Positions 13,801 to 61,769 of a stretch of DNA of 64,000 nucleotides are shown piece after piece. The translations under genes and the position numbers were made by a program. Below the pieces are notes generated by a model, which worked only from the letters and a program-made list of their open reading frames with translations, was not told the origin of the DNA and made no database searches. Positions within the stretch are counted from its first letter, which is position 1, and the number at the start of each line of letters is the position of its first letter. This DNA comes from Tricharina praecox (taxonomy: Eukaryota). The stretch is from positions 124,001 through 188,000 of the forward strand of contig NW_026250403.1 in NCBI RefSeq assembly GCF_024521635.1, given 5' to 3'.

Positions 13801-14024
13801 GACAAAGTTGTTAACGGCAATAGCCCAAGTCACCGCAGACCGAAATCGAAATCCCTAAAACCAAGCCCACACAAACAACACAAGTATTAAAACAGTATGG
13901 TGAAAAGAACGCAGAAACACGCCATCAGATCAAAAGGAAAAAAACAACACCAAATACTCCCCCAAACTCCCCTCGTACCACAACTTTTATGCCTAATTCA
14001 ATTTAGGACTTTTCCTCTTTGCGT

Positions 14025-16004
14025 CTATTGGTAGTCTCTGCGAGGAATGTTCTCGCACATGTCCTGCAGACGCCGCCAAGCCCAGTACGAGTTTGTCGCA
14101 TCTTGACTCTTGCAACAGTCGGAAAGAATCTCCATGACCTTGAACTTCTTGCTATTGTCGGGGAGAAGAGGATTGAGTTCATTCATTCGGTCCATGGAGC
14201 TTGAAAACCTGCCGCTCCAGTATCCAGGGGCCATCGACTCCGTGACCAATGCGATCTGCGGGTTTATTGGCTTGAGCGGTCGGTAAATGTTCTTCACGAC
14301 CTTGGGTTTTCCGTCCTCGAGGATTGTGGTGACTTCCGGCGGCGGCCGTGGTGCTTGGCCATGAGAGAATGAGTACGATGGCTTCAGGACTTGGTGGCGG
14401 TCGTAGTAGTCTGCAGCTTGGTTGTAGGGATTAATGCCCTGAGGTATGGCAAGCGATCCAGGTGCGAATTGTGGGTAGCGACTATACTCGCCCTGGAGCG
14501 GACCAAAGGACATCGGCTGAGGAATACGGGTGGGTACGGCGTGTGAGCTGTAGTCATTCTGTTGTAGCTGTCGAGCGAAAGCGCCTGCTTGAGGATAGCT
14601 ACCGGCTTGCCCAGCATTAAACGTGTGTGCATGGGGTATCCTAGACATCCCCGGATAGTTCGCAGTGTTCTGTTGGTTGTCTGAGTAGTATCCAGAAGCT
14701 GGGTATTCACCATGTCCCTGATATCCACCAAAAAGTTGAGTGGGCTGCGGTCTCTCGTTACCTTCCTGCAAGTGATATCCGAGTGGCTTTGGTCTGGAGT
14801 GCACGTGATTCTGAGCATACGCCGTTGTTGGTACCGGGGGTGGGGCCATCGATCCTGGGTACATGGAGTACTGGCGCTGCGGAATTCCCGACGACGGGTA
14901 GTGATATTGACGAGAATCGTACTGGGCCGGCATACCGGTGGTGGCCTGGATTTTCTCATTGGGTTCGGCTCCAATTCCCGACGACGGGCGGTGGTACTGA
15001 GGAGAACTGTACTGAGCCGGCATAGCGGTGATGGCCTGGATTTGCTCATTGGGCTCGGCTCGAATTCCGGACGACGGGCGGTGGTACTGACGAAAATCGT
15101 GGTGGGCCGGCATAGCAGTGTTCGCCCGGATTTGCCCATTCGTTTCGGCTTGATCCAGGCGGACGTCTTGCGAGGTCGGATGCACCGTGGCGGGTCGTGG
15201 AATTGCCGAAGGCTTCTGAGGGGATATACTTGAATACCACCGTTCATCAATCTGTCCAAGCTCCCTCAGCTCCATCTCATGGAGAGTCCGTATCTGGTTT
15301 GTCTGAACCGGAGTCACCGATGGATTCCCTAAGGAAAAACTGCGCGGAAGACCGAAGTTCTCCTTCCGAAGCGAATCGCTCCATTTCTTCTTTTGGGAGA
15401 TCCGACGGTTCTGGAGGGGCTGCTCCTCTTGACCCTGTCCTTGCTGCTTCTGCTCCTTCTTTTGTTGCTGATGGAGCTGAGCCATACTTGAGAGCTGTCC
15501 TTGCCGCTGCTGCTGCCCCTTCTTCTGTTGCTGCTGGAACCGAGCTATACTTGGGGCGGGTGGCTGTTGAGGAGGCTGATCCGTACCCATTCCCCTTCCA
15601 AGGCTACGGCTGATGTCGTGGTTGTGCTGTCCTCGCCCGCGACCCATCTGCTGCATGTCAGGTCTAACAGGAGGGTCGACCGGCTGTATGTCGAAGCCCG
15701 GAGGGCTAGTCAACCCCGGATAGCTGTTTCCTGCCGGCGGGTCACCATATTGCAGATCGCCACGAAACGAATATCGACGGGCGCGGGGCATGTAGTCAGG
15801 CTTCTGGACTCTGATCTCCGGCACCATTGGATTGCGAGGTGGGATGGCGAGCTCTGCCTCACTGAAGTATTCTTCATCGACAGGAATTCCAGCGGCCCTC
15901 TGCTCTCTATAGTGCTGATACAATGCCTGCTTGCTCTCCTCCCATAGCCTGATTCGCTCTTCATATATAGCTTTCGCCTGCTCGGACAGGTTACTCGCTG
16001 ACAT
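14025..16004 (-). CDS. Hypothetical Q/P-rich protein (659 aa) with three 30-aa repeats and a small C-terminal 'YWSGRF' domain
   Basis: Single long ORF, mostly low complexity; C-terminal MAPGYWSGRFSSSMDR..LSDCCKSQDATNSYWAW looks like a motif I recall from uncharacterised ascomycete proteins. Confidence 0.8.
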   Translation of the reverse strand: MSASNLSEQAKAIYEERIRLWEESKQALYQHYREQRAAGIPVDEEYFSEAELAIPPRNPMVPEIRVQKPDYMPRARRYSFRGDLQYGDPPAGNSYPGLTSPPGFDIQPVDPPVRPDMQQMGRGRGQHNHDISRSLGRGMGTDQPPQQPPAPSIARFQQQQKKGQQQRQGQLSSMAQLHQQQKKEQKQQGQGQEEQPLQNRRISQKKKWSDSLRKENFGLPRSFSLGNPSVTPVQTNQIRTLHEMELRELGQIDERWYSSISPQKPSAIPRPATVHPTSQDVRLDQAETNGQIRANTAMPAHHDFRQYHRPSSGIRAEPNEQIQAITAMPAQYSSPQYHRPSSGIGAEPNEKIQATTGMPAQYDSRQYHYPSSGIPQRQYSMYPGSMAPPPVPTTAYAQNHVHSRPKPLGYHLQEGNERPQPTQLFGGYQGHGEYPASGYYSDNQQNTANYPGMSRIPHAHTFNAGQAGSYPQAGAFARQLQQNDYSSHAVPTRIPQPMSFGPLQGEYSRYPQFAPGSLAIPQGINPYNQAADYYDRHQVLKPSYSFSHGQAPRPPPEVTTILEDGKPKVVKNIYRPLKPINPQIALVTESMAPGYWSGRFSSSMDRMNELNPLLPDNSKKFKVMEILSDCCKSQDATNSYWAWRRLQDMCENIPRRDYQ

Positions 16005-17240
16005 GGTGTATGTAAAGCGCTAGAGATTGTGTTGGAATCTGTTAGAGATTGGAAAAGAGAGTAGACAAGATCTGCGAACGGTGTGAACAGAAGGGTGTGA
16101 ATGGGTGAAGAGAATAGGCAGGATGTGAAGACGGTGAGGAGGGAAGCTGTGGAAGGGTGTGGAGGGGGGAGGGTGGGGGGGTGAGAGGGTGTAGAGGAAG
16201 GGGGTGAGAGGGAGGGTGTAAAGAGAATCGGTACAAAACTTAGGTGGTGATGTTGTTTGTTGGAGAGAAGGTGAAGTAGTTGTGGTCGAAGTTTACAGTA
16301 TTTGGGTATCCGAAAACAGGAAATATTGTGGGCGAGTGATTGTTGTGACACCAGTTACTATTCTATTACTGTCTCGATCCTTCTCGGTGTATGTAGGTGC
16401 GGTTAGGGCCCCTCCGTTACACCGGACAAACACCCTCCCAAAATCCTTCTGATTGCGATCCGCCTCGTTGATATATGCACCCATATGGAGCTCCAACTCG
16501 AAGAACCACTCATCCTTCTCACTAAGTGCCTCTCCATCCGCAACTGCCGTGAAAAACTAATCCCATCTTCCCCCGTTGATTCTCATATCAGATGCGTTCC
16601 GGTCCTGTGTTATGCGGGGTTCATCGCGCTGTAAATTAGGTTGGTGGATGTGGCGCCGCTGGAGGACGTCGACGAGTTTCTTAGGGACTGTGGGGAAAGA
16701 GAGGAGATACATGCTGATCAGGCGGGACCCGATAATCTGGTTGAAACTTCTGCGATCTCCGCCGCCAGCGAGGCTTCGGAGCACGCTCGTCATTGAAGCC
16801 ATCGGGCGAAGTTGTCGTTGCGGGTATTGTTGATAAAAAATCCGGTCAGGGTGAAAACCGGCGGATGCGTTATTGGCGTTCTACGGGTATATCTAGAAGT
16901 AGAAAATAGCGCCCGCCGTTGACATCGCCGGGATGACGGAATGGTGGGTTTCCACGAGATCCCGGAACGTAGACGAAGTGGTATCATCGGCCGAGTTGAG
17001 GATCGAGAAACTGGAGCTGTAGGAGACCATGGGGGCGTCTGGAAAGGCATCCCATGCCGCCCGCCCTTCCTCACCTCCCCGCCCTTCCTCCCCTTCCTCC
17101 CCTCCCCGCCTCCTCCCCGCCCTTCCTCCCCACCACGACCAACACGACCAACACGACCAACACGACCAACACGACGACTAGCACAACCAACACGACCACA
17201 AGCACCACGACCACAAGCACCACAAGCACCCACAAGCAAG

Positions 17241-17579
17241 ATGAAAGTTCGTATCACCTCGTACACCGCGACGGCCGTGTGGCGCTGGGACGTTCCGGAG
17301 GACGACGTGTGCGGCATCTGCCGCGTGCAGTTCGACGGTACCTGTCCCAACTGTCGCTTCCCTGGCGACGACTGTTCTCTCGTCAATGGCAAGTGTGGAC
17401 ACTCGTTCCATCTGGTATGTTCTCGTCTATGATGTGTGATGTGTGTGGCGGGAGAGGAGGGAGAGAGGCTGATGGAAGGGCAAATGAAATAGCACTGTAT
17501 CAACGATTGGATTCAGACCGAGGCCTCTGGAGGGCTGTGCCCCATGTGCCGCCAGAAGTTTGAGTTTGGGGCGGTATAA
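17241..17579 (+). CDS. APC11: Anaphase-promoting complex subunit 11 (RING-H2), copy 1, 86 aa
   Basis: Exons 17241-17414 and 17493-17579; MKVRITSYTATAVWRWDVPEDDVCGICRVQFDGTCPNCRFPGDDCSLVNGKCGHSFHL-HCINDWIQTEASGGLCPMCRQKFEFGAV, the typical Apc11 signature. Confidence 0.95.
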
Positions 17580-17798
17580 ATTTGGCTGACTTGCAAACGG
17601 ATGGGCGGAATTTGTGATGATTTGAGGGTGGGCTCAAGGAATCACGAATGAAAAATACCAATTTGCTTTGCGTTTTAAGTTTTGTGCTGTTGATGATGGG
17701 ACTGTGAATTGTAATGTAATGCATATGGTAAGTATAATACATCACAATGCACTCAGAATGTGTTGCGTGTGAGCGCCAGACCGAGTGACACCTCCCAG

Positions 17799-17851
17799 CC
17801 CACCACCACCACCACCACCACCACCACCACCACCACCACCACCACCACCAC
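17799..17851. repeat. (CCA)n microsatellite, ~17 units
   Basis: Pure CCA run at the right boundary of the duplicated APC11 unit. Confidence 0.95.
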
Positions 17852-18895
17852 GTACTGGCATCTGCATTCCTAGTCTGCTAGGGCAGTGACGACTGCTGAA
17901 CATTCCCTCTTATAACGCCCATATTATTCTTTTATCCAGCGAACCCCCATAGTTGGTGCACATAGGTAATATATCCCACGGTGATGGACAAAGCGGCAAC
18001 TCACGGCTTCAGTACTGCGCGAGAGGGCATTAAGTGCCATATAGTAAAAGATGTGCAGAAAACTGGAGGCAGCTACGGCTTCATGTCGCTGCCTCGGCTT
18101 GCCGTGCATTGTATCGGATTGGAATGGCCTGGTTCCGGACAGTGACGGACCGATATATTGATGTTCTGCGTGACCTTTCGAAGTAGATATGATCATCACT
18201 GAACGGCCTTCCCATCGTACAGCATAATGTTAGTCCAGTAGTGCCTAGTTCATGTAAAGTCTCTCCGGGACTCACTCGCAATCGTGCCCGGAGTCCGGGG
18301 GCTTTGCTACCGGCAGTATTTTATTGCAAGCGCTATAAACACGACCGGCTATCCGGCGAAGACCTACTCTCCGTGTGAGATCACCTCTGCTTTGTGTCGG
18401 GCTGGATGTCTCGGCTGTAACAAATTGCGTGGGATCGGAATGCGAGCCGTAGGAATCGTTGTGATATTCTTCGTCTAATCGTTTGCGTGATCCTCAGGAA
18501 AACAGAATGAGGCCTTAGGCGTTATTGTTGGGCCTGAGGATTCAAGGCTCACTAGCCAAGAGACTGCCATCCACCTCGCAAACTCACGATGCCCATTGTC
18601 TAGTCAACAGCGAAATTTGCTTCCTACTCGAGAGACTTGAGGGCCTGGCGTGATAGCTGCGTGGCAGAGTGATTGTGATTTCGTGACGTACTCAAGCACT
18701 TACATGACTAACTAGCGGAAAGCCACCCACTGAATTCCTCCAATCACATGGATACAGTTTCCCGCGGTTCATCGGAATTGACCAGCCCTAACCGCTAGCG
18801 CACCAAACATTTGCCCCGCCAGCAACCTCCACACCTGTGCCCGGCCATCACCACCATCGCCCGCCTACGCCCGCCTCCGCAATCCGCCAACCACA

Positions 18896-20020
18896 ATGTC
18901 GACCGTCACCGACACCCTACTCCGGCACTACAACGCTCTCTACTCCTGTCCCTTCCACCAGACCGTTCTCGCCACCACCGTCCTGGGGCTCACCACCTCC
19001 TACCTCCTCCTGCGCTCCACAGCACCGCCCCCCCGCAGCATTCCCTCGCCACGCATCAAGCCCCCCACCGCGGCGACCCCCTACCCGCCCACCATCCTCC
19101 CAGGCGCGCGCCTCATCTCGACTCCGCATGGCACCATAAACGTCGCGGAATTCGGCCCGCCCCACGGGCGCAAGATCCTGCTGATCCACGGGATCAGCAC
19201 GCCGTCGATCGTCTTCGCGAGTCTCGCGCAGGCGCTCGCCAGCGATGGGTACAGGGTGATGGTGTTCGACCTGTTCGGCCGCGGGTATTCCGACGCACCG
19301 ACGGACGTGCACTACGACGAACGCCTGTTCTCGACGCAGATCCTGTATGCGCTGTACGCCTCGCCGCTGGAGTGGGATCGCTTCTCCGTGGTCGGGTACA
19401 GTCTCGGCGGCGGGATTGCGGTCGCGTTCGCCGCACATTTCGCTCAGAGAATCGAGAGCCTGGTCCTGTTCGCGCCCGCGGGATTGCTGAAGGGGAATGG
19501 CCTCGGGTATTTGACAAAACTGGCGAGGGGCGGATGGGTGCCGAAGGCGATTGAGACGTGGATGCTCGGGCGACGGCTGGCCACTAGGGAGGCGGCGCAT
19601 AAGAAGGATGCGCCGAATGAGGATGGGATGAATTATTCCAATGTGATGAAGTGGCAGGCGGCGGAACATAAAGGGTTTGTCAAAGCGTTTGCGAGCTCGT
19701 TCAGATACGGCCCCATATATGACCGTCAGGAGGAGTGGCGCGCGGTGGGAAAGGCCGGCATCGCGAAGATGGGTGTGCTGATCGGCGAGGGGGATGATGT
19801 CGTTCCGCCCGCTCTGTTGGGGGAGATGGTTACGCTGCTGGGTGGGCAGGAGAGAGTCAGGGGGGAGATTCTGGTGGGCGCGGGACATAATCTGGTTAGA
19901 GAGAGATGGAGGGAATGTGCGGATTTCGTGGGCGACGTGGTTGGTGACCCGGAGGGCTCCGATGATGGCTACGACGACGATGCTATGACTGCTAGTACTA
20001 GCACTTTCGGCGACTTTTAG
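18896..20020 (+). CDS. Alpha/beta-hydrolase fold protein with N-terminal hydrophobic segment
   Basis: LLIHGIS oxyanion motif, FDLFGRGYSD, nucleophile elbow GYSLGG, GEGDDVVP acid and GAGHNL His. Confidence 0.92.
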   Translation: MSTVTDTLLRHYNALYSCPFHQTVLATTVLGLTTSYLLLRSTAPPPRSIPSPRIKPPTAATPYPPTILPGARLISTPHGTINVAEFGPPHGRKILLIHGISTPSIVFASLAQALASDGYRVMVFDLFGRGYSDAPTDVHYDERLFSTQILYALYASPLEWDRFSVVGYSLGGGIAVAFAAHFAQRIESLVLFAPAGLLKGNGLGYLTKLARGGWVPKAIETWMLGRRLATREAAHKKDAPNEDGMNYSNVMKWQAAEHKGFVKAFASSFRYGPIYDRQEEWRAVGKAGIAKMGVLIGEGDDVVPPALLGEMVTLLGGQERVRGEILVGAGHNLVRERWRECADFVGDVVGDPEGSDDGYDDDAMTASTSTFGDF

Positions 20021-20293
20021 GTGGATATATGATGGACCAGACAAAAAGGAAAGACAAGTGAATGGCGAGCTGATGACTGCCTGGTTTAGACTGAAGTTTT
20101 GTATGTATATAAGCATGGCGAGGATGTGGACGTGTGTATTGTAGATATCCCTCTGGTTAGTTAGAGACGAGGGGGTGATTTGGAAAGGCGAGAAGACGGA
20201 CAGAACGGGTTGGTTAAAGAGTCACAAAAAAAAGTTGCATCTCCTCCTCACTTCTCATACCAAGCACTGAATTCCATTTATTATCACATCGAT

Positions 20294-20953
20294 TCATGGC
20301 CAAATCCACCTAGTTTCCACACCCTTATGTCTAACGCCCAATCCCCTCCCTATAGAACTCTCCGCCTCCCTCAGTGTACACTCGGCGCAAAGCCGATTCC
20401 CACACTGCTCACACCAGCACCAATAGTCGACGCTACAGAACCTGCAGCTCCTGCCTTCCTTTCCGAACCTCATCTGGTCCGCGGGCGTGGTCACGGTATC
20501 CTCGGGGATGCACGAGACCGGCTTCGGATCCTGGAACGGGGCAATAGTCTCGATGCGTTGGCGCTCGACGGCGCACTCGCGGCGGACGCAGAGGGGGACG
20601 GCGCATTTGCGGGCGACGTGCGCGGGGAGAACGCACGTGCACGGCACGGGCAGCTCGCGGAAGTGGTGGTAGTGCTCGTTGATTGTCGGGTGCGGGAGGG
20701 ATTTGCGGCGGTGGCGGTCGGGCGCCGGGCTGGAAGGGTCGATGATTGTTGCGGCTCGAACGCGCGCGGAGGGTTCGTCTCTTGTTGCTGCGGGGTCGGT
20801 CATGAATCTGTTGAAGGGGCCGTAGCGAATGGTTTGTGGTGGTGGTGGAGGTCCGGGGAAGGAGTGGGATCGGTCTCGCTCCTTCTGTCCCTTTGGGGGT
20901 GACGGTGGAGGGGTGTTGTATTCAAGGGTCGACCTGAAAACCGGGGTCGCCAT
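20294..20953 (-). CDS. Hypothetical protein (219 aa), Pro-rich N-terminus and Cys-rich C-terminus
   Basis: ATG-initiated ORF with many clustered Cys (CTC..CAVPLC..CRFC..CWCEQC..LCAEC). Confidence 0.65.
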   Translation of the reverse strand: MATPVFRSTLEYNTPPPSPPKGQKERDRSHSFPGPPPPPQTIRYGPFNRFMTDPAATRDEPSARVRAATIIDPSSPAPDRHRRKSLPHPTINEHYHHFRELPVPCTCVLPAHVARKCAVPLCVRRECAVERQRIETIAPFQDPKPVSCIPEDTVTTPADQMRFGKEGRSCRFCSVDYWCWCEQCGNRLCAECTLREAESSIGRGLGVRHKGVETRWIWP

Positions 20954-21409
20954 TCTAATGGTTACTACTTGTTGTGCCTGGTGGAGTTGTATAGATAGAC
21001 GGTACTGGTGAATATTTCGTGGACAGGTTGATCGGAGAGGGTTACATTGTGGTCGGTTGGGGAGTGATCACTCTGTCACTCGTAGGTTATGAGTTTGGGG
21101 CGAGTGATTCAATGTGAAACTTCGCAGGAGCTAGGGATCTTGTTGCACCCAACCTGGTGCTATCCCGATGAACCAGGATTTATACTTGTTACATACCACG
21201 GGGCAGCAGCTAAGGCCCTGTTCATCTTACATTATCTCATTCCTAGTACCATCCAAAGAAGGGGAGGAGTCTCCATCCTCAACCACTACCATCACCACCA
21301 TGCTGCAAAAATCAACGAGAGCACAGATAATTGGAGTCTGATGGGATGGCGGCAAAAACTAATGTGTAGAGGAGGTATCACTAGACAGCCCGAGCGAGAA
21401 GCAAAAGAA

Positions 21410-31481: not shown

Positions 31482-34419
31482 CTACCTCCTCCGTCGCAAC
31501 TTAAACCTCAATCCATCGTCATCGCTATCATCGCTATCACTCTCCGCATCCGACCCAATCTTGAGGGCCGTCTTTGGTTTCTTCGCGGGGGGGACTCTAC
31601 TACTGGCCTGCGGGGGCACCGGTCGCTTCGTCCCGGCCTGCGTCTGACTCTGTGACATCGATGGGAGCGCGCTACTGTTGCGGTGATGGGGTTGCGGTGT
31701 CTGTGCTTGACTGGTAGTTCCGCCTCGGCGGTTGCGGAGGCTAAAGGTGGGCGGGGAGTCGGGGTCGGATTGGTCTGCCTCGGCAGGTTCGCGGGCGGTG
31801 GAGAAGGCGCCGGCACCACCACGGCGGGGTGGCGAGGGGATGATTTCCTCTGCTTGTTGGGTGCTCCGCTGTGTTCCCTTGCGGCGGGATGAACCCGAGT
31901 CTTCGTCCCCGATCCAGTAGCCTGTAGCAAAATCAGCTTGCTGTTTGGTATCAAAAGAACCACAGATAGCCCACCATCTCCAATGCCGAAATCCCGGTGC
32001 TTGTGTTCAACAAGATCAATAAGTATCTTGGGCCCATTGAAGGATCTAGTACTGCTCCCCGTACCAGAGCGTCTAAACCCCTTGAAGTTTTCCCGTCCAT
32101 TCCACTCTGGCTTCCATCGATCACTTCCCTCTCCACTTGCAGCTCTAAAGGACCTATTGACGCGGGGCTTGACTTCCACAGTCTCTACAATCGCCAGATT
32201 CTTCAATCCGGCAATATCGACACCTTCCATAGCCCTTTGTTCCTCGACCTTAACCCTTTCTGCCTCAGCCGCCTCCTTCTCCCTAATCTCGCGCGCCTGC
32301 ACTTCGAAGGTGGTCTCGGGCTTGCCACGTTTCTTCATCTTGGCCGGAGTCTTTGGCTCTGCTTTTACCGATACCTGGGATGCTGCAGATTCGTCGACCG
32401 CGATGGATTCCTGTGGGGAGATCGTCTCGCCGCGGCGAGCACGTTCTTCTTCCTCCGCGACTTTGCGGCGTTTGGCAATTCTTGCACCAGGCAGGAGATC
32501 CATCATGTCCAGGTTCTCGTCGCGGTCTGGCACTGCGGGCGCGGCGGGGGCGGGGCGTTTCCGTGAGGGCGGCTGTGAGCCAACTATGATACTATCCGCT
32601 ATCGAGGACGAAGGCTCGTCCTGTTCCATCTCCATTGGTGTCGGGATGAGTCGATTAAAACTCGACTGTTTACCCAGATTCTAATCGCACCAGGTTAGCA
32701 GCTGCTCCATCTATGCCCTGTTGATCACCTACGTCGTTCGAGAATATTGGCTGGTCTCTCCTGCTCTCTGGACTCTGTGTTGGAATCTGACTTGCGGGCT
32801 CGGGAGTCGGCGCCACGAAATCACCACCGACATCGAAGGCAAAAGGATCGATGGGTGTGGCACCTCTCCGTCGAACCTACTCGTTCGTCAGTCAAAGGGA
32901 CACCGCAACATTGGCATGCGTAGACCGACCCTGGCCCTGGTACGAGTTGCAGCTGGGCCTTCGGAGGGAGCAGGTTTTTTGGCGGATTCGGGCTCCGGTT
33001 TAGCTTGGGATTGTCAGCTATTCTGTGGCCTGAATGCACGTGAGTTTCCAATCTATATACCTCTGTTACTAGGCGTAGGTGGTTCCGGTGAGCGTTGCCG
33101 GGGACTCTGCTGTTGCTGGAGTGGTCGGTGAAGAGTGGAAGTATCACAACTCAGGATAACCTCCAGAAACTCGTTCTGTTCGACAACGCGAAAGCCCAAT
33201 CTACAACCCCATCAGTCTGAGCACACCTCCGCCATTGCAGCCAGAATAAAACCTACAACTGCTGCAACTTCTGAGTAAATCTCATTTCCCAGTCCGGATT
33301 TGTCTTTGACCTAAACCTGACCACGGCGATATCGTCCCCGAGTCTCCGCTTCTGCACAAAGTCCGCCAGCTCCTCAGGCAGTGTGACGCCATCCTTGATT
33401 GTGAACTTCTCCGGCTTCCCTCCAGCATCCGTAATAGGTGCAAGGAGGTTATGGTACTGCACCTCGTCGCCAAACACAAATACCCAACCTTCAAAAATGT
33501 TCTTTCTCCTTCCATCCGGGGCATAAGCCTCCGGGGGCTGCGACACAGGCTCATAGCCCACGGGCGGGAGAAAGTCCTCCGCCGTGGGCCAGTGCGCATC
33601 GAAGTCACATTCCAGCGACGACTGGGGCGTCTGTCCGTTGTCCGTCGGTGGCAACTGAGCAGCCGAGACGATGGCGTCGATGTAGGAGTGTGTCACGATG
33701 TGTCGGCCGTTGACGAGGGCTTGTAGACCGATTGCAGTGTTGCGTTTTGCGGCGATGACATGCGTGGTGCCGTCGGTCCAGGTGGCGATGGTTTTGATGT
33801 CCAGCTTCTCTAGTTGCGAACGATACACGGCCATGCTGTTCTTGTCTTTCCGCTCCTTGGAGGAGAGAGAAACCGAAAAGATTACTGGCGTCCATTTCAC
33901 CCTGCCTTTGTGAGCCCACTTCACTCCTCTATGCGGGTTGTGGTGTATAGCGAACCTAAACGCACAGCCATGCTTCCCCAGATAGAAACCGTGCTCGTCG
34001 CGTGTATCGAGAGCAACAGTCCCCTTGATCTTCTTGCCATTCCAAATCGTGCCATGCTTTGTATCACAGTCTTGGATCGTGAGTTCCGTTCGGGCGTGGA
34101 GTTTGATCTGCCCCACCGACCATCAGCACCACGCCGCTACTTCACAAACCACCGGTAGGATAGGCCATACTCCGTCCCCTTCATTTACAGGGCCCACGTT
34201 GATCACCAAATGCCGTCGCGAAATCGATCGACTCGAGGGAACCACGGCGGTAACTACATCGCACGCATTAGCCCTCAGCTCCCCCCCGCCCCGCCAACCG
34301 CTACCTCGCGACATACCATCGTCGCACTTGACTCTTCCAAGAACACATCTCGTGCCCGGCCGTAACCATATGCGAGTTCCGTTCAGCGTGTCCTTGTCGT
34401 CGCATCCTAAAAGCCACAT
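31482..34419 (-). CDS. NBS1: Nibrin / Nbs1 (MRN complex; FHA-BRCT-BRCT), multi-intron
   Basis: FHA: RIWLRPG..SISRRHL..DTKHGT; BRCT: THVIAAKRNT..LQALVNG..IVTHSYIDAI; Mre11-binding WNGRENFKGFRR; acidic C-terminus DDDGLRFKLRRRR (Tel1/ATM-binding type). Confidence 0.9.
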
Positions 34420-34862
34420 GATGCGATGCGTGTCGTCGTTGGCAGCTGCGGATGTCGTGAAGTGTCGCGTTGATGACTCTTCACACAGCCGGGGAGTCGG
34501 GGATGACGCGATTTAGCGCTATGGCCGTGTTGACCTCACGTGCGCGCGAGAGCTGACAACCTACCTAGAGAGGTTTTATGCCAACAGAATGAGCCTAACG
34601 CTATTTAGCTAGCGGACTCGGAAGAGCTTCACGCGAGTGATATTTAATGATATAAAATATTCGGCTTCGTCGCGGCGGCGATTCGGCTGCCCGCGCATGG
34701 AGTCCTTCTTACAAAATCCACCCGGACTCAACCAGTTTTGCTCCAACTAAGTCAAGTACAAAGTCAGGTTGATCCTCAGATGTAGGCCTTTTCAGCTATT
34801 GTGAAAACTTCAATAAAAACAACTTGTATTAAAATTTAAATACTCCATCTCCAAGTCTTTCA

Positions 34863-36563: not shown

Positions 36564-37431
36564 GTTTCCCGGACTTTCACCACTAACAAACACAAGGATC
36601 CACAGACGATGGCAGTAGTATATTCATACAGCCTATCGGAAGCCCAGGAGCCGTTCATATGGGTGAGGTGGGGAGCAGTCAGCCTGTCGGATCCGGGAAA
36701 CGTTTTTCGTGCTATTGTTCCAAGAGTGTTGATACGCTTCCTCGTAAGGGAACAGGCCAGAGGCGTTTTTGAGCAGGGCATTCCTGAAGTGCCTTGGTCC
36801 TGGAGGCCCAGCATGATTAGGTGCTAGAGGGAGAATTCAAGGCCATCCAGTCAAGAATATGAATCGACAAATCCAGGATTCAATCATATTCTTCACGGAT
36901 GTTTCGCCCAAATATCAAACGACGGTTCGATTCGTTGACGAAATTTCCAGGGAAGTGCAATTTCCGCGGTGTCCTCTCCCGAGAGCTGTGGAAAAGAGAG
37001 CTTGCAAGAGTGTCAGTAGCTGCTCGGCTCGCGAGAAAATCGATTGAAGTATACCCAACGTCCTCTCTTCATCGTCTCCATCTTGTTCAGCCGAATGCCT
37101 CCTCGTCTTCGAATGACGGTGGTGGCCAAAGAATGTATCTAGAAGATGATGTAAGGGAGAGTGGTGTATGTAGTGTACCTTGTACATGTCGAGGAGAGCT
37201 CCTTTTCCTCTGCTTCCCCGCACATGCACGATGACCCCCAGCATAGCAGGGATGACCCGCTAAGCTAGAGCAACTAAGGTCGCCGAGCAAACCACCGCAA
37301 CCAGCCGTGAACAGCTCATCCAGCCAGCTCCTCTCTGTGGACTCTTCGACTTCCACTACTTGTACTCGCTCCATACCATCACCGCTCCCATCACACAGCT
37401 TCATCATCAACCAAAACCAAGCCTACGCTCA

Positions 37432-38167
37432 ATGTCCGGCCCAGCCCCCATCGACACCACCACCGCCACCGATACCAACCCGGGCGTCGACCTCTCCCCC
37501 ATCGGTCCGACCAAGGACCGCAAGAACTCGCTGGAACATGGTATCTCCCCGCCGTCACTGTCCATCCCCGCGCCATCCCTCAATCTTAGCTAACAGAGCA
37601 AACAACAAACCAGCCCTCCAATTCCGCCCGGAAGAGAAAGACCTCGTAGACCGCAACATCCTGCACCATGGAGCACCAGCGATCCAGCGTCAGCAGGCTG
37701 GTACCCCATCCCGCCGTCCCCCCACTCGCTCTCGGCCACTGATCTAGCTACCTACTCGCGTAGAGCTCGAGAAAGCTATGGCCCAGGACGCCCTGAAGAA
37801 ACACCTTTCGAAGCGGCCGACGAAGGAGGAGCTGTTGCAGAGTGAGCTCCCCCCGCCCCGCCCCCATCCCATGTTCCCCCATGTTCCCCCCCACCTTCCC
37901 CTCGATATTGACGAGATATAACTACAGGGGGAGTCCTTCCCGAGAATCACAACGTCGCCCCGGCCCTCATCGCTGCGCAGCGGGATCTCGAGAAGAGTAT
38001 GCTCGAAGACACACTCAAGGAGAAGCTTGCACACCGCCCCAAGCCGGAGGAGGTTGTTGAGAAGGGGATTCTTTCTCGTGAGTACCAACCCTACCTACAA
38101 TATGGAAGAGAGATGTGGGGCTGATTATGGGGGGACTTTAGCGGAGGAGGATCCTACCAAGGTGTAA
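37432..38167 (+). CDS. RPEL-repeat protein (4 introns)
   Basis: Spliced product has three RPEL-type repeats: LQFRPEEKDLVDRNIL, LSKRPTKEELLQRGVL, LAHRPKPEEVVEKGIL. Confidence 0.9.
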
Positions 38168-38469
38168 GGGAGCGAGGGAAGATTGGGGAAGACTCTTGTA
38201 TTGGTTGATACCTTTCGCTTTGCTTTGCTTTGCTTTCGATTGAACGGCTGGCAGGAAATTGTCAAGTCTTGAGTATGCATTACATTACAATTCAAATTGC
38301 AATTCACACTGCCATCAGCACATAACGTCACATTACAATTCACGATCCCATAACAGCACTGAACGTAAAACGCAAATTGATATTTTTAATCGTCATCGTG
38401 ATTCCTTAAGCCCACCCTCAAATCGTCACAAACCCCCCATCTGTTTTGTTTGCAATCCAGCCCACCCAT

Positions 38470-38788
38470 CTACTGCGCCTCGAACTCGAACTTCTGGCGG
38501 CACATGGGGCACAGTCCTCTAGACGCCTCAGTCTGGATCCAGTCGTTCACACAGTGCTTTGTTTCCCCTCATCAGCCTCACCCGCCACACATAGGTATCC
38601 TAGAGATTACTTACCAGATGAAACGAATGTCCGCACTTGCCATTGAGCAACGGACATTCATCGCCCGGAAAGCGACAGTTGGGACAGGTACCGTCAAACT
38701 GCACGCGGCAGATGCCGCACACGTCGTCCTCCGGGACGTCCCAGCGCCACACGGCAGTTGCGGTGTATGAGGTGATGCGGACTTTCAT
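38470..38788 (-). CDS. APC11: Anaphase-promoting complex subunit 11, copy 2, 86 aa
   Basis: Exons 38788-38615 and 38556-38470; 58-nt intron GTAAGT..GCTGAT..AAG; full RING-H2 intact. Confidence 0.93.
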
Positions 38789-39292
38789 CTTGCTTGTGGG
38801 TGTTTGTGGTCGTGGGTCGTACTAGTCGTGGGTCGTGGGTCGTGGGGGTCGTCGTATAGTCGTGGTTGGTCGTGGTAGGGAGGAAAGGCGGGGAGGAGGC
38901 GGGGAGGCGGGCGGTAAAGGTTAGGGCGGGCTTGTTGTGGTGGCGGGCGGCGTGGGGTGTCGTGACGTGGTGGTGGCGACGTGCTGAGAGGTGTCACTCG
39001 GTCTGTCGTCAGTGCATATGATGTACTTACCTTATGCATTACATTACAATTCACAGTCCCATCATCGGCGCATAACGGCTTGCAGGAGAATGTCAAGTCT
39101 TGAGTATGCATTACATTACAATTCATACGGTCCCCTCATTAGTAGCACATAACGTAACATTACAATTCACAGTCACCATAATCATCACTGAGCGTAAAAG
39201 GCAAATTGGTATTCTTCAGTCATCGTGATTCCTTGAGCCACCCTCAAATCATCCCAAATCCCGCCCATCCGTTTGCAATCCAATCTCCCCAT

Positions 39293-39617
39293 TTACTGCG
39301 CCTCGAACTCGAACTTCTGGCGGCACATGGGGCACAATCCCCTAGAGGCCTCAGTCTGAATCCAGTCGTTGACACAATGCTGTTCCGCTCATCAGCCTCT
39401 CCCGCCACACACACACCCAAATCCTAGACGACGAGAGACATACCAAGTGAAACGAGTGACCACACTTGCCATTGAGCAACGGACATTCATCGCCGGGGAA
39501 GCGACAGTTCGGACAGGTACCGTCAAACTGCACGCGGCAGATGCCGCACACGTCGTCCTCCGGGACGTCCCAGCGCCACACGGCAGTCGCGGTGTATGAG
39601 GTGATGCGGACTTTCAT
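39293..39617 (-). CDS. APC11: Anaphase-promoting complex subunit 11, copy 3, 86 aa
   Basis: Exons 39617-39444 and 39379-39293; 64-nt intron GTATGT..GCTGAT..CAG; protein identical to copy 2. Confidence 0.95.
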
Positions 39618-40146
39618 CTTGCTTGTGGGTGTTTGTGGTCGTGGGTCGTACTAGTCGTGGGTCGTGGGTCGTGGTTGGTCGTGCTAGTCGTCGTGTTGGT
39701 CGTGTTGGGTCGTGGTTGGTCGTGTTGGTCGTGTTGGTCGTGGCGGGGAGGAGGCGGGGAAGAGGCGGGGAGGCGGGGAGGCGGGGAGGGTAGGGCGGGA
39801 AGGGCGGGGCTGGCGGGAAAGGTTAGGACGCGTTGTGGTGGCGGGCGGCGTGGGGTGACGCGACGTGACGTGATGGTGGGCTGGAGGTATCACTCGGTCA
39901 AGCTCTCACACGTGACACATTCTGCACTTGGACAACAGCTCCACAGAACCACGATAGAGAGACAGTGAGAACAAGAATGGATAATCCTCCATGCCCGCAA
40001 CCCGATGCCCCAACTAAATAACTTCAACTTCTGGTATGATGGATGCCTGCCTGAAAACTGCACAAAAAACAAACGGCTGAAAGCAAAGTAAAACACGGCA
40101 AAAATAAAAATATAAAGTAGACCGAAATCTGTCCCCCAAAAAGGTG

Positions 40147-41657
40147 TTAAAACACGGTAAGACACGAAATACTCTTATTCTTCAATACTTCGAATATGAA
40201 ACCCGGAAATCCGTAAAGTTCTATTCAGAATCGTTAGTTTCGTATGGGAGAAGAGGGCGGGAGGGGGGGAGGGGAGATGCATTCACCAGTATTGCCATAT
40301 GTCGTCTCGTTCGTTCCCGGGGGGACCTTCGCACCCGTCGCCGTATCGCCATCTTCCCAGCCGCCCAACAGTTCACAGCTACTACTCGGCGAATCGCTTC
40401 CACGATTCAACGGCATCGGCTTCTGAGCGCCACCGAAGCGTCCATGGAGCTGTACTAGGACATCGTCGAAGGACTGCTCGCTATCGACGTGCAGATCCAT
40501 TGTGGATTTCGGCGGTGATAGCGGAGAAAGCTCTACTGCCCATCTGCATCGCCGGTATCGCTGGAACTCGTAGCTCCCCGGAACGTTGCCGTGGATTATT
40601 ACCTTGGTGGCTACGGGGTTGCTGGACGAGCGCACGCTAGAGATGAAGATGTCGATGCCGTGCACGAAGTAGTTGTAGAAACAGTCGCCGTTGGAAGTAG
40701 AGGAGAGGTCCGAGAGATCAGAGTCGTCGTCGTCGGACGGTGTGTCCTCCTCTGTCGAGTCGATATCATCATGGCGGGTACGGTGGATCGAGAGACGGTG
40801 ATCGCTCTTGCGGTATATCACATCCGGCGGGCCCAACTCCGACACCAGATCCTGCGGCGTGGTAGAGTGCAACGTGATCCAAAACGGCGGGTTGTGGCGC
40901 CGTATTATCTCGATGGCGTTGCCATCATGGATCCGAATGAACTCGACTTCGTCGTTCGCGGAGGACAGACGCGCGTTCGAGCCGTTGATGCTGGGGGTAC
41001 GTGGGTTCTGGACGGGGCGCGTGAACAGGTCGTCTCGCACGTCTGCCCACGACGGACCCGCGAATATCGCCATGCTCGTGGCGGGCTGCGCGTTGGTCGA
41101 CGAGAGTAGCGAGACGAAATCGACGTCTTCTTTCCAGGCTATACGGTCTATTGGGAAGGAAAACGCCACCCCGGGGTACGATAGCACGTAGAGGCCCTGC
41201 GATTCAACGTATTCCCCTGGATATGTGGGGCCGAAGGATTTATTATAGATGCCCTTGAACGTCGGGCCGCCTCCAGCGCCAGGCTTCACGATCTCGCGGT
41301 TGTTGTACGTCAACCCGCATTTCTGAAAGTCCAGGACTTCGATCAACCGCAGCCGCTGGTCGGCGCCATCGAAGCGCAGGCGGATCCCGTTATTCTCAAG
41401 GAGTATTACGACCGGCGAGGACAGCGGGGATATGGGATCGTAGATGGTCGAAATCGACGTGAACGCTTTCTCATAACTTCGGAGACGCGCAAGAACGTAG
41501 TGGAGAGAGGACCCGAGAGCTTGCGCGGTCAGCGAGAGCTACCACCACTACTACCGCCGCCACCACCACCACTGACAACGGGCCTGCTGAGAATACCGAT
41601 GAATCCCAGGGCTTTCCCGGGCACGACTGCAGCGGCGATGCCGGCTGTGGTGGCCAT
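40147..41657 (-). CDS. UPF0183 family protein (PHAF1/C16orf70-like)
   Basis: NGIRLRFDGADQRLRLIEVLDF, FGPTYPGEY, LSYPGVAFSF, TPQDLVSELGPP, FYNYFVHGIDI, HGNVPGSYEF..Y.RCRW, LYGFPGFIFEV; two introns. Confidence 0.9.
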
Positions 41658-42781
41658 ATTGTTTACTTCGAAATGTCTTTGGTGGGATGGAGCTAACGGT
41701 GGAGCTGTGGTGGGTATGCGGTTGCGGCGGGTTGCTGAATGTGGTTGTGAATGCGAATGTGATCTCCAGACGCAGCTGTGATCGGAGCTACCTATGAGCT
41801 CTTCTTTTCGCTAGTCATGATGTCCCTGGCCCTTCTTATCAACCGGCATCTCCTCCCTACCCCTCGCAGTAATCATGCTCATAGATACCCAGCCTTCAGA
41901 TAACCTCATCACGAGAAGAATGTAATAATTCGGCGTCATGTGAGGCTGCTTGCTTCTTCCTCCGCCGTTCGTTCCGGATGCGAGTGAGGCAGCGGCCAAA
42001 TGCGGATTTCTGTGAGGATTTCGGACCTCTCTAGTCCCGCTCTCACCCGTCCGATTCCATGCTGCTTCCGGAGAGAAAACAGAGTGATGAAGGCAGACGA
42101 TCGCCGAAGACCATCGTCCGCCTCATCATCATCATCATCACAAGCTACCGGTATGGCCAAGCTGGAGGAGACGTACTCTATAGTACTCATTCGCCGCTTG
42201 GATTGCGCAGCAAGTCGACAGGCATCTCAACAACCACTCAACAAATCACCCCGAGATTCCCACATGAAGCCGATGCCATTTTATTCACAGAATGGCTCTT
42301 CAAGAGTCTTGCTTGTAGAATTGCGAGAATGAATACCGGTAGTGATGACCACAATAGCCAACCCTAACCTCGTGATCGCTGTCGGATTCGGCCTCTGAGT
42401 CTACACAGGCTGCTCTAACCAGCTTCTGCCTACACATCACATCACACCCACCCCCAAACAACCCATACCTTACCTTACCTTACGCACCACATACTGTACA
42501 TTCCAACTTGCTACCCGCTCACTCAGCCCACTCAACCAACCCACCACCACTACTACCACTATCTACCACCACCACCACCACCACCATAGAAACAGTCGCC
42601 GCCTCCCTCCGACCGTGAATTTCTTCCCAAGAGAGACAGCCTTAACCCACTCCTCACACTACTGCTTTCAAACGTCCCACGAAGTTCATTTCTCGTCGCC
42701 TCCTTCCATCGCTCCCAACCTCCCTCCCTCAACAAACAGCAACCCCGGGACGATCGACCACATTCACCTTCATACCAAACG

Positions 42782-43859
42782 ATGTCTCATCCTCGTGCTT
42801 CGACGCAGTCGCAACGCTTCGCCCAGTTCAAGCTGGTGCTTCTCGGTATATACCAATAAAAAATACTTCACACGCGTCCTCTCTGTCGGCGCCAGTGTCA
42901 TCGCTTTCGTTCTCTAGCTAACAGGTTTCGCGTCTTTTGCTAGGTGAATCTGCTGTCGGAAAGGTTCATTTCCTTCCCTGTTCCGCAACGAAAGTGGGTT
43001 GGATAAGCAACAGATCAACTAACTAAAGTGTGGATACCTTAGAGCTCTCTGGTGCTTCGGTTCGTCAAGGTATTATCCCGCTGAGGCCGCTCGACGCTAT
43101 CGACGGTGGTACTGATTGTGGCTGCGATTATAGGACCAATTCGACGACTACCGGGAAAGTACTATCGGCGCAGCCTTCCTCACCCAGACTATCGCTCTCG
43201 ATGAGACCACTACTGTCAAGTTTGAGATCTGGTACGGCCACACCGACTCTACCCCTCGGCCATCATCTTCCTCCTCTCCTCGTCCCCCCGCTATACACAG
43301 TATGCTGATGTTGCGAACAATGAAGGGATACTGCTGGTCAGGAACGCTACAAGTCGCTGGCGCCCATGTATTACCGTAACGCCAACTGTGCTGTTGTGGT
43401 TTACGACATTACACAAGCCGTATTTACCCCTTCTGCTCTTCCCCCTCCCCCTCCCCTTCATCCTCTTGGCGTGGCCTTCCAGAGCGAGGCATACTGAGCA
43501 TAATGGTACTTTAGGCGTCACTGGATAAGGCAAAGGCATGGGTCAAAGAACTGCAACGCCAAGCGAACGAGAACATCGTCATTGCTCTGGCTGGAAACAA
43601 GCTGGATCTCGCCACGGGTCCTGGTTCGAAGCGTGCAGTAGAGACTGCCGAGGCGGAGGCATATGCGAGGGAGGCCGGCCTTTTGTTCTTCGAGACCTCC
43701 GCGAAGACTGCCGAGAACGTCAAGACGCTGTTCACGGCAATCGCCAAGAAGCTCCCGCTCGACCAGCAAGGACCGAGGGGTGCGAGACCAGGCGTTGGCG
43801 GACGAGGTGTCGACCTGAAGGGAGGCGTGGCTGCTCAGCAGCAGGGCTGCAACTGCTAG
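42782..43859 (+). CDS. YPT52: Rab5-family GTPase (Ypt52/RabB-like), 5 introns
   Basis: [62 protein letters not shown]-terminal CNC prenylation motif. Confidence 0.93.
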
Positions 43860-44646
43860 ACGTTTTGTTTTTCTTCGCAAGGGACTGAATGTACGGTAGT
43901 TGGGGATGGGGGATAGGACGGGGGATTTTGCCGTTTACATGCTACATTTCTTTCCGTTTGGCTAGGTCGAGGGGATAGCTCTGGTTGTCATCGAAGAAGA
44001 ATTCGGGGAGTACTGGCATACGGGTGTCCTGCACAGGACGGTATTAGGTGGGTTTCGGCGTCTTTACCTATCCTAACGTTGGAACTGGTGTGATGTGGTG
44101 GCATCTGCTTGCCCGGGAATTCTTCTACTTCACAGCTTGGGCCAGATATCATAATTGGTTCTCGGGACCCCTCCCCCGATCGAAGGATTTTTGTTTTTGT
44201 TTTGTTTCGCGATGCTTCGTCTTTCATGGTGTTTTTCCTTTCTTGTTTTTTTTTCTTTTGATGCTTGATGCTTGTTGTCGAAACGTCACCTTTCTTTTCT
44301 TTTTCCAGATCATATCCTCTTCTTCTTCTTCTACTTCAGTTCTCTTTCATTCTGGGCTGCTCATACGTGTAAATGATCGTCGAGGTATTAAATTACGTTA
44401 GAGAATCCATTGGTTTGCAGGTTGTGGAGAAATGAAAAGCTGGACTGGTGATTTTGAGTTTGTGGTGTTGAGCTCTATTTCTTAAATTTGGTGCTGCGGG
44501 TATCTGCTCTGCCAAGGCGCTCGTTTTCTTCGCAACTTTCGGACCGAGCATCATCATCATCGCATTCTAGTTCCGTCAGTCGTTATCGCCTAGAAATCTA
44601 CCACCACTACAACCACCTCTTTCACCACCACAACCCAACCGCGGCA

Positions 44647-60134: not shown

Positions 60135-60623
60135 TGCTGCGTAAGTTGGAGGTGGAAACGTTCAGTGAAGTTGGAGCTGTAGCTGCATTGTAGGTGAGAG
60201 GCTCTGGTAAATGTAAAGTGGCATCAATAGGCTTGGCACCAATGACGTTAGTCGAGGCGATCCACGGTGGAAGCATCAATGGCTCCTCGAGTTATATATA
60301 CGCAGCCGGCTCACCGAACTGAATTGCGCCTATTGGCAGCCATGCAGTGTCACTACCCCTCATTCCACCTAGCCCTCGGCGAGATTCTCGGCGAGATTCT
60401 CCCGCTCACGCTCGTGGCAACAACAGCTAAACATCCGGAACCAGACAAACAGATTTGCCGTCAACCATGGGCGTGAAAAATGCGAGTGGCTTTGAATGAC
60501 TGCTGCTAACGTAGCAGGACTTGGCAGCGACGCCGTGTAACCAACACCGGGATGTAGCTGACAGCTGCCCCACCATCGTCTGCATAGAAGCTCGCCTTCA
60601 CCGACTCAATCCACACAGCCCTA

Positions 60624-61769
60624 ATGTCGCTCCCCCGACTCCTCCGCGCCTCGAAATCCTCCCCGCTGCCCTTCTCCCGCCCCTTCACCGCCATGTCCAC
60701 TCGCAGCCTCAGCCGCTTCATTGTCAACCCCACCGAGCTCTCCACAGCGCTGCACAACCCCCCACGCAACTCCAAAATCATCCCGCTCTCCGCCGAATGG
60801 TACCTACCCAACGATTCACGCAAGGGCCGCGCCGAATTCCTCAAGCTGCGGATCCCCGGCGCGCGGTTCTTCGATCTCGATGCTGTCAAGGGCGACTCGC
60901 CATATCCGCACATGCTCCCTGATCCCCAGACCTTTGCCAACGCCATGAGCGAGCTCGGGATCACCAGGGAGGATACGCTCGTCGTTTATGATTCCCCGCA
61001 TATCGGTATATTCTCGGCTCCGCGCGTCGCGTGGACACTAAAGGTCTTCGGGCACCCCAGGGTGCATCTGCTCAATAACTTCAAGTTGTGGGCGGCCCAG
61101 GGACTGCCGACGGAGAGTGGGGAGGTGAAAGAGTGGGAGAAGACGGAGTACGCTGTGCCACAGATGGATTACAGTGTGGTTGTCGACTTTGAGGAGATGG
61201 TGACGCATGCGGAGATGGGGACTAAGGAGGGGGTGGAGATTATCGATGCAAGGCCGAACGGGCGGTTCCTTGGAATCGATCCGGAGCCGAGACCAGGTTT
61301 GGGGCCCCATGGAGTGGTGGTGGGATGGATTAAGGCTGAGACTTGTGCATAGGGCTTTCATCGGGGCATGTTCCAGGTACGGCTCAACTACCGCTTCTGC
61401 GAACTACTCCGCTAATGTCGCCTACTCTCAGGCGCGGTCTCGATTCCATTCAGTGAGCTGGTGGATCCTGTAACGAAAACCCTCAAGACTGCGGCAGAGC
61501 TGCACACTCTCTTCCTCGAGAAGGGAATCGATGCGTCGGCGAAGACCGACAAGATCTTGATGTGCGGGACGGGTGTCACTGCGGTTATTGTGGATGCTGC
61601 GTTGGAGCTGGCGGGTATCGAGGGGAAAAGGAGGATCTATGATGGATCGTGGACGTGAGGCTCCCTAGTGTCTATGGTCTGTGCGAGCGTGTGATGGCTG
61701 ACTTGGAATAGTGAATGGGCCCAGCGGGTTGACGAGAAGTCTGGCTTGATCGTCAAGAAGCCGCAGTAA
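60624..61769 (+). CDS. TUM1: 3-mercaptopyruvate/thiosulfate sulfurtransferase (two rhodanese domains)
   Basis: RIPGARFFDLD..PYPHMLP, FSAPRVAW, IDARPNGRF.G.DPEPR, active-site CGTGVTA, YDGSWTEW; three introns. Confidence 0.93.

Follow-up and report, generated by a model that had tools for sequence, protein, structure and literature searches.

APC11 genes and the rearranged block at 17 kb

The window analyzed here, a stretch of 64,000 nucleotides (64 kb) from Tricharina praecox (contig NW_026250403.1, positions 124,001 to 188,000, forward strand), contains three APC11 genes, copy 1 on the plus strand near 17 kb and copies 3 and 2 in tandem on the minus strand at 38–40 kb. All three have intact frames of 86 amino acids and GT..AG introns, and their first exons score 73.0–73.3 bits (E about 2e-20) against the Pfam profile zf-ANAPC11, for which a gathering score of 25 is the membership threshold. 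Pairwise omega among the copies is 0.07. The three genes are thus predicted to encode the APC11/ANAPC11 RING-H2 subunit of the anaphase-promoting complex (APC/C), apparently under purifying selection. The proteins of copies 2 and 3 are identical, with 16 of 261 coding bases differing, all of them synonymous. Copy 1 carries six derived amino-acid changes (positions 46, 48, 61, 71, 84, and 86), none at a zinc-binding Cys or His. A literature search for APC11 paralogues in fungi, including the accessible part of PMC3195147, turned up no fungal APC11 duplicates, which is no proof of their absence. The block bearing copy 1 and the array are composed as follows.

17046..17051 (+): left GGCATC, direct repeat at the insertion boundary; array homology begins directly after it
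17052..17240 (+): C-rich leader and 5′ untranslated region (UTR) with minisatellite units of 9–21 bp, opening with CCATGCCGCCCGCC, homologous to the array at 39853.. and 38955..
17241..17579 (+): copy 1 gene, two exons, intact 86-aa frame
17241..17414 (+): exon 1 of copy 1, 58 codons, Pfam zf-ANAPC11 with E 1.6e-20
17415..17492 (+): intron of copy 1, retained, GTATGT..TAG, aligning with the introns of copies 2 and 3 and of relatives
17493..17579 (+): exon 2 of copy 1 including the stop codon
17580..17691 (+): 3′ flank/UTR, with homology to the 3′ flank of either array unit (p = 0.105–0.110, aligned sites)
17692..17725 (+): single motif M, 34/34 identical to the junction motif Mc (39066–39033)
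17726..17753 (+): junction-specific filler GGTAAGTA..ATGCACT, common only to the junction of copies 3 and 2 (39032–39006) and absent in relatives
17754..17799 (+): start of the next unit, with the CAGAATGTGT block and the conserved element CAGACCGAGTGACACCTC, which lie upstream of the gene in the array and in relatives
17800..17851 (+): (CCA)17.3 microsatellite, expanded from the array's CCACCACCA; Logan contigs break here
17852..17856 (+): GT, end of ..CCACGT and last array-homologous bases, then the 3-nt filler ACT
17857..17862 (+): right GGCATC, direct repeat at the insertion boundary; array homology ends before it
39074..39924 (−): array unit 3, with upstream block, hexamer GTCACC at 39859–39854, gene at 39617–39293 (exons 39617–39444 and 39379–39293) and end GCCGTT at 39079–39074
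39006..39073 (−): 68-bp tandem-junction insert, consisting of a 7-nt filler, the 34-nt Mc copy of the nearby M motif and a 27-nt filler
38243..39005 (−): array unit 2, with hexamer GACACC at 38961–38956, gene at 38788–38470 (exons 38788–38615 and 38556–38470) and end GCCGTT at 38248–38243

The block 17046–17862 runs collinear with a single period of the inverted tandem pair (38243–39924), including the unit-to-unit junction. With 16700–18300 as BLAST query against the window, 17060–17717 matches 39808–39157 at 79.1% and 17101–17717 matches 38907–38330 at 77.6%, while the part behind the gene matches the 3-2 junction (17692–17845 against 39066–38934, 72.0%) and the region upstream of copy 3 (17754–17809 against 39924–39870, 85.7%). 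Apart from (CCA)n microsatellites, no array homology was found by this search on either side of the block. An exact-word dot plot and a MAFFT alignment likewise give a single collinear path leading from the leader through the gene and its 3′ flank across the junction into the next unit, exactly the course proposed in the first-pass annotation, which had described copy 1 as a circularly permuted array unit. The alignment also bears out that copy 1 keeps a CAGAATGTGT..GTGTGAG block which is present upstream of copy 3 and missing from the present 3-2 junction. Homology ends with CCACCACCACGT (17842–17853, corresponding to 38976–38965), the last letters being ..CCACCACGT at 17853, behind (CCA)17.3. 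Within the block, the M motif is preceded by the sequence that stands to the left of the units' own M motif and followed by the sequence to the right of the junction motif. The conserved element at 17777–17794 is identical to 39005–38988 over all 18 positions.

The two ends of copy 1 map only 9 nt (unit 2) or 14 nt (unit 3) apart in unit coordinates, so that the earlier statement of ends lying a few bases from each other stands in a refined form, with the 3-nt filler ACT added at the right side. Two random breakpoints within a period of 830–900 bp would abut in this way with a probability of about 3% by our own arithmetic. The hexamer GGCATC is indeed present at both ends, at 17046–17051 and 17857–17862, with just one further occurrence within 16–19 kb (17313, in exon 1). 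However, among 20000 random pairs of sites 811 bp apart, 7.75% share a 6-mer within ±12 bp, and the repeat alone is consequently weak evidence; the abutting ends are the stronger signal. At the place corresponding to GGCATC, the array has GTCACC (39859–39854) and GACACC (38961–38956), each matching at 4 of 6 positions. Besides, the 9-mer GGCATCTGC occurs both at 17313–17321, in the exon 1 codons of the CGIC motif, and at 17857–17865, comprising the right hexamer and three flanking bases, possibly by chance.

Two other kinds of origin were considered for the block and rejected. A retrocopy is ruled out by the kept intron (17415–17492, GT..AG), as already recognized in the first-pass annotation, by the lack of an A run or poly(A), and by promoter-side sequence lying behind the gene. 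As for a transposon with terminal inverted repeats, the block has a 6-bp direct repeat, but none of the 25 longest inverted pairs joins its ends.

The insertion site is intergenic, between a Q-rich gene and an alpha/beta-hydrolase gene. Assembly support comes from Logan contigs of run X1, possibly the sample from which the window itself comes; coverage refers to the X1 contigs listed. These tile the region without mismatches at 14000–16129, 16209–17163, 17162–17324, 17303–17721, 17696–17790, and 17931–21000. An assembly artefact, either a mis-join inside (CCA)17 or a collapsed tandem of copy-1-type units, would agree with the gap at 17791–17930, with further (CCA)n runs at 41.5, 42.5, 45.1, and 53.4 kb, and with a word depth of 10.9–14.9 for copy-1-type contigs (17162–17790) compared to 5.9–7.8 in the flanks. 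The raised depth could be noise from GC content and short contigs or a second copy-1-type unit collapsed in the assembly. Nevertheless, an artefact is very unlikely, as the left junction is bridged by the X1 contig 16209–17163 with 0 mismatches, array homology runs 4 nt past the microsatellite before the hexamer, and depths of short GC-rich contigs are noisy, with values of 9.1 for a unit-3-type contig and 7.5 for the single-copy array junction. The one X1 joint that goes back, from 17734 to 17101, is the cross-mapped 3-2 array junction with about 117 nt in between and not a circle joint.

The ancestral locus and the age of the copies

A metagenome scan with exon 1 of copy 1 gave 305 pattern matches and 201 relatives, from which 80 loci were kept as the basis of all locus counts given here. 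Three of them (L001, L002, and L003) represent close relatives, with 93% identity in the exon 1 protein and 72–82% nucleotide identity in the flanks. L001/L002 and L003 possess one APC11 each, located at the array locus and embedded in the array's flanks. In L001, the order is window 40146–46087, gene, 37195–38792 and 31487–34549, and L002 and L003 are likewise syntenic with the array locus. The 115-kb contig of L001 holds one APC11 locus among the 80 kept. Within the fetched DNA, a second APC11 copy was found at 0 of the 80 loci. Sequence of the window beyond APC11 is shared by 29 of the 80, always inside 30975–61770; none matches window 1–30974. Copy 1's neighbors were not found beside APC11 at any of the 80 loci, the sole match being a hydrolase paralogue of 28% identity at L052.

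Upstream of the gene, L001 shows the conserved element, the ACGT-core run, the hexamer GTCAAG, and CCACGCC in one contiguous order (element .. CCCACGTCACGTCAAG-CCACGCC), and L003 has both a CAGAATGTGT-like block and the element at this side. From L001 and L003, the sequence divided between the two ends of copy 1 is thus contiguous in the ancestral state, and these ends represent derived breakpoints. Unit 2 ends in the native flank CAATCG.., as in relatives, and GCGTT|CAATCG is contiguous in both relatives, as in unit 2, whereas the 68-bp insert is absent from them and hence was made at the tandem duplication. Since copy 1 carries the 34-mer and the filler, its template already had the tandem joint. 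On these comparative grounds, the array locus is established as the ancestral one, and copy 1 as the derived copy, coming from a tandem or a closed unit. In addition, movement of copy 1 as DNA to a site 21 kb from the ancestral locus, in inverted orientation, is supported.

The reverse relation, in which copy 1 is ancestral or the remnant of a larger array split by inversion, had been raised in the first-pass annotation as a reading that would overturn its own; it is contradicted by the relatives and barely credible. It is true that a circle or a tandem could have formed through GGCATC repeats on either side of a source segment, and that inverted orientation at 21 kb is what an inversion predicts. 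However, the single gene of the relatives resides at the array locus with the array-type order of element and gene, and 0 of 80 loci link copy 1's neighbors. An inversion, moreover, would leave copy 1 attached to one array flank, whereas its two ends break off at an identical place of the unit, with unrelated sequence beyond.

At third codon positions, copy 1 differs from the array copies at 23–25 of 86 sites and copies 2 and 3 differ from each other at 13, compared to 29–38 of 86 between the ingroup and the relatives. These counts, together with the derived residues R4 and A69 common to all three genes of the window, indicate that the duplications are younger than the separation from these relatives. 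The similarity of copies 2 and 3 is local. Over 62 bases before the ATG they are identical, and their exons differ by 5–8%, whereas intron, 3′ flank and far upstream region differ by 13–18%, and the three copies are about equidistant there. This pattern suggests homogenization of copies 2 and 3 by gene conversion within the array, and the identity of their proteins points to conversion combined with purifying selection. The tandem duplication is not younger than copy 1. Since the three copies are about equidistant outside the converted core, the present array can be the donor, and the earlier tandem array postulated in the first-pass annotation is not required. Polarized sites give a ratio of nonsynonymous to synonymous changes of 6:4 for the copy 1 branch, compared to 2:14 for the array branches (Fisher p = 0.026), the protein of copy 1 having evolved faster than those of the array copies.

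The donor unit itself shows conflicting site patterns. Unpolarized counts are dominated by unit-specific changes and polarized counts are mosaic. At outgroup-polarized coding sites, copy 1 shares five derived synonymous states with unit 2 and none with unit 3. In total, its affinities are mixed, with the 5′ part of the intron and CAGCCCACCA being unit-3-like and the coding sites, a 1-nt insertion and the 18-mer being unit-2-like.

Some further observations concern the array and its surroundings. The 34-nt insert of the junction is templated on a motif 40–108 bp upstream, while for the 27-nt filler no convincing match was found in the window or the 80 loci. This filler (39006–39032, and 17726–17753 in copy 1) starts like a consensus 5′ splice site, AG|GTAAGTA, and one of its 9-mers recurs at the intron start of copy 2 (38608–38616). 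In both array units, about 50 bp of the GTGAATTGTAATGT motif region are internally duplicated in tandem (38274–38350 and 39105–39180), a feature absent from copy 1 and relatives; conversion may have carried it from unit to unit once copy 1 had left, or else copy 1 lost it. The element ACCGAGTGAC(A/G)CC is found at 17777–17794, 38988–39005, and 39883–39900 as well as at about 5811–5823 in L001 and 5225–5237 in L003. As it is kept upstream of APC11 in relatives and both units, a function as promoter element is probable. Copy 1 carries it downstream of the gene, where it still matches unit 2 at 18/18 positions.

The gene upstream of the array (40234–41538) belongs to the PHAF1 family (Pfam E 5.4e-61) and has kept its place in L001 and L003. 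In 24 distant relatives (L013, L019, L028, L032–L035, L037–L041, L043, L044, L049, L051, L052, L054, L059, L060, L070, L074, L076, and L079), APC11 is found 0.5–1.2 kb downstream of a gene corresponding to window 60780–61126. The latter lies in an open reading frame (ORF; 60588–61349) 21 kb beyond the array, showing a weak rhodanese-like match below the Pfam cut-off. The array neighborhood thus appears to have been rearranged before the duplications.

Runs X3, X5, and X7 appear to be RNA from the same species, displaying a spliced joint, adapter ends and, as the only stretch covered with 0 mismatches, the hydrolase transcript (18.85–20.22 kb). Exon 1 of the spliced transcripts in these RNA-like contigs ends as in copies 3 and 2, and the contigs of the array copies reach at least 57–105 nt upstream of the ATG. 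At the diagnostic sites 17249–17294, X3, X5, and X7 show only depth of the array-type APC11, although such contigs drop rare variants, and absence of copy 1 transcripts is unprovable in this way. Of copy 1's neighbors, the alpha/beta-hydrolase gene (18844–20221) is covered from end to end in the three runs, adapter-flanked and with 0 mismatches, and the Q-rich ORF (14025–16019) and an ORF starting at 17030 on the minus strand have no cover in X3, X5, and X7 contigs. In X7, an 828-nt contig with a depth of 136.6 matches at 17279–17354 but represents a different, more canonical APC11 (8 of 76 letters differing), most likely from another, more abundant organism in the sample.

Possible routes from the array to the new site

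The favored explanation for copy 1, held at a probability of roughly 0.4, is the passage through a circular intermediate; it is plausible and tied with a replicative rival. Starting from the ancestral APC11 at the 38–40 kb locus shown by the relatives, a tandem duplication in this lineage created the complex joint read from the sequence (7-nt filler, 34-nt motif copy, 27-nt filler). A closed one-unit molecule might then have formed by recombination between the units or between the junction's 34-bp motif and the motif behind the downstream gene. Subsequently, the circle would have been opened in the promoter region within the ACGT-core repeats, losing about 9–14 nt, and joined via the 3-nt filler into an intergenic break 21 kb away in inverted orientation, whereby the six target bases GGCATC would have been duplicated. 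By this insertion, the conserved far-upstream element would have come to lie behind the gene, copy 1 keeping about 190 bp of its own upstream sequence. Copy 1 has since remained intact, its protein changing faster than those of the array copies, which were presumably homogenized by gene conversion.

Two findings argue for this route. Both ends lie at one point of the unit, within 9–14 nt, which is automatic for an opened circle, and the fused M motif is the product expected from excision between the two 34-bp repeats. Moreover, with five derived states shared with unit 2 and none with unit 3, a permuted, closed unit would be needed if the array had two units only. In the first-pass annotation, the circle of about 0.8 kb had been deduced from the permuted order. 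Of that claim, a DNA-level, inverted transfer from a junction-bearing template holds, whereas the circle itself does not follow, as a tandem donor gives the same order. The order of copy 1 is rotated compared to the single-copy order in L001 and L003, but the linear stretch 39859–38956 of the present array has copy 1's order as well. Circular permutation is consequently uninformative when the donor is a tandem array.

This and several other points speak against the circular route. No circle, empty site or polymorphism was seen, and the right junction is unbridged, as none of the X1 contigs listed covers 17791–17930. Landing 21 kb away on the same chromosome fits proximity-dependent copying and would be unlikely for a freely diffusing circle. 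At the array junction, the templated 34-nt insert between fillers seems to be the mark of iterative template switching, and thereby of replicative errors at this locus. Due to the mosaic of unit 2 and unit 3 affinities, the donor unit does not appear to be fixable. A popped-out circle depletes its own chromatid and must have entered the sister chromatid or been of replicative origin. Finally, a 6-bp target duplication needs a staggered break, and the hexamer repeat has a chance level of 7.75% in a loose window. Re-integration by microhomology, as suggested earlier, is doubtful. The donor hexamer can be deduced as GTCACC-like (unit 3 GTCACC, unit 2 GACACC, L001 GTCAAG). Both copy 1 hexamers differ from it at the same two positions, and the GGCATC repeat therefore looks target-derived, with the 3-nt filler at the joint. 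As microhomology shared with the donor, GGCATC is unlikely, both copies being perfect and different from the inferred donor hexamer.

A real possibility is an out-and-back template switch without any free circle, either by FoSTeS/MMBIR (fork stalling and template switching/break-induced replication mediated by microhomology) or by synthesis-dependent repair. Here, a nascent strand engaged in replication or in the repair of a break at the 17-kb site would have switched to the array just behind the promoter hexamer and copied roughly one period, junction included, perhaps with a slip from one 34-bp motif to the other, and would have returned a few bases behind its point of departure, thereby duplicating GGCATC and leaving the 3-nt filler. 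Donor and target lying inverted on one chromosome at a distance of 21 kb would suit such a course, as would the 3-nt filler and microhomology of at most 1 nt at the junctions of copy 1, the templated 34-nt insert flanked by fillers at the array junction, the stretch 39859–38956 as ready linear template in copy 1's order, and the intact donor array, as copying predicts. Filler, little microhomology and templated insert are features of FoSTeS/MMBIR junctions, albeit not exclusive to that family. However, entry and exit within 9–14 nt of the same point of the period would be a coincidence of about 3% without guiding microhomology, and an extra slip would be required for fusing the motifs. That copy 1 shares five derived coding states with the downstream unit, but none with the upstream unit expected as source of a simple linear copy, also runs counter to this route, although the signal is weak and mosaic.

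The fragment may also have been linear, one unit released by two breaks at the same fragile or hotspot site in adjacent units and end-joined at a third break 21 kb away. Coordinated double cuts at meiotic hotspots, after which the fragment is inserted again, have been described in the literature. In the array, the donor breakpoints fall in CACGTCACGTC.., a short repeat occurring once per unit (the ACGT-core run before the C-rich leader), and filler combined with absent microhomology suits end joining. Still, this origin is improbable, requiring three simultaneous breaks, with no sign of a hotspot at the donor site, and excision would have left a one-gene locus whereas the array is intact.

In a rather unlikely variant of the circular route, the order of events would be changed. 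A single circle of about 0.9 kb from the single-copy locus, closed by the 68-bp joint, would have seeded both duplicates, producing the tandem pair by re-entry at home through homology and also giving rise to copy 1. For the latter, a sister circle shortened between the two 34-bp motifs would have entered illegitimately 21 kb away. This would explain the presence of the same joint at both places as well as the near equidistance of the copies outside the gene-converted core.

Relation to known systems and significance

In yeast tandem arrays (rDNA, CUP1, HXT6/7), recombination between direct repeats pops out one-unit circles, which amplify or re-enter at home by homology. Unlike these, copy 1 would represent a fixed entry at a non-homologous site, which would be unusual. 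Translocations via circular intermediates are known from color sidedness in cattle (Durkin et al., 2012) and from a Zygosaccharomyces bailii segment found in wine yeast (Galeote et al., 2011), as far as described in the accessible part of PMC9694575. Similar to these cases, the internal order of copy 1 is rotated with the former ends adjacent inside, and it moved as DNA with its intron kept. In contrast to their single-copy sources, for which rotation is diagnostic, copy 1 has a tandem pair as source, where a linear copy gives the same order. Furthermore, it measures 0.8 kb instead of tens to hundreds of kb and lies just 21 kb away, with a 6-bp target duplication. According to the accessible sections of Joubert and Krasileva (2022; PMC9694575), no translocation mediated by extrachromosomal circular DNA (eccDNA) was found in 306 Magnaporthe oryzae genomes, the scripts being limited to non-repetitive regions. 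Compared to L001, copy 1 shows the signature used there, that is, two adjacent alignments in reversed order with foreign flanks, but in contrast to that search a repeat is involved. What makes the case small and repeat-derived also makes it non-diagnostic for a circle.

For the replicative route, filler and low-microhomology junctions are regarded as compatible with non-homologous end joining, microhomology-mediated end joining or FoSTeS/MMBIR in the part of Gu et al. (2016; PMC5120786) available, whereas iterative template switches are treated there as specific to FoSTeS/MMBIR. Hastings et al. (2009) and Lee et al. (2007) are cited by Gu et al. for replicative insertions of this kind. Copy 1 resembles the insertions covered by Gu et al. 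in being an intrachromosomal inverted insertional duplication with 0–3 nt of microhomology or small fillers and a templated insert nearby. The cases given there are human, range from kb to Mb and often have target deletions, whereas the length of copy 1 equals one repeat period, which is not predicted by that mechanism. With respect to the array, homogenized copies 2 and 3 with introns and flanks differing by 13–18% are reminiscent of fungal ribosomal protein genes in concerted evolution, as presented in the portion of PMC6993855 at hand, although the gene family is another one and here a third, dispersed copy escapes homogenization.

Fixed records, at the level of sequence, of a small gene leaving a tandem pair and settling elsewhere are rare. 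Here, outgroups fix the direction in which the gene was transferred, both breakpoints are known to the base, and the junction of the donor survives, hence the choice between circle and template switch can be taken up experimentally in a culturable soil fungus. Should the circular route be true, it would add a small, repeat-derived, and intrachromosomal example to the known cases; should a single circle have seeded both duplicates, the window would document, as few natural cases do, how a gene family of a filamentous fungus grew by eccDNA. With a replicative mechanism, copy 1 would be an ordinary though unusually clean dispersed duplication. By either route, the window holds three intact paralogues of an essential, otherwise single-copy APC/C subunit, in which an array pair kept protein-identical by conversion and selection would stand beside a faster-evolving copy 1 cut off from the upstream element, that is, a natural experiment in dosage and regulatory divergence.

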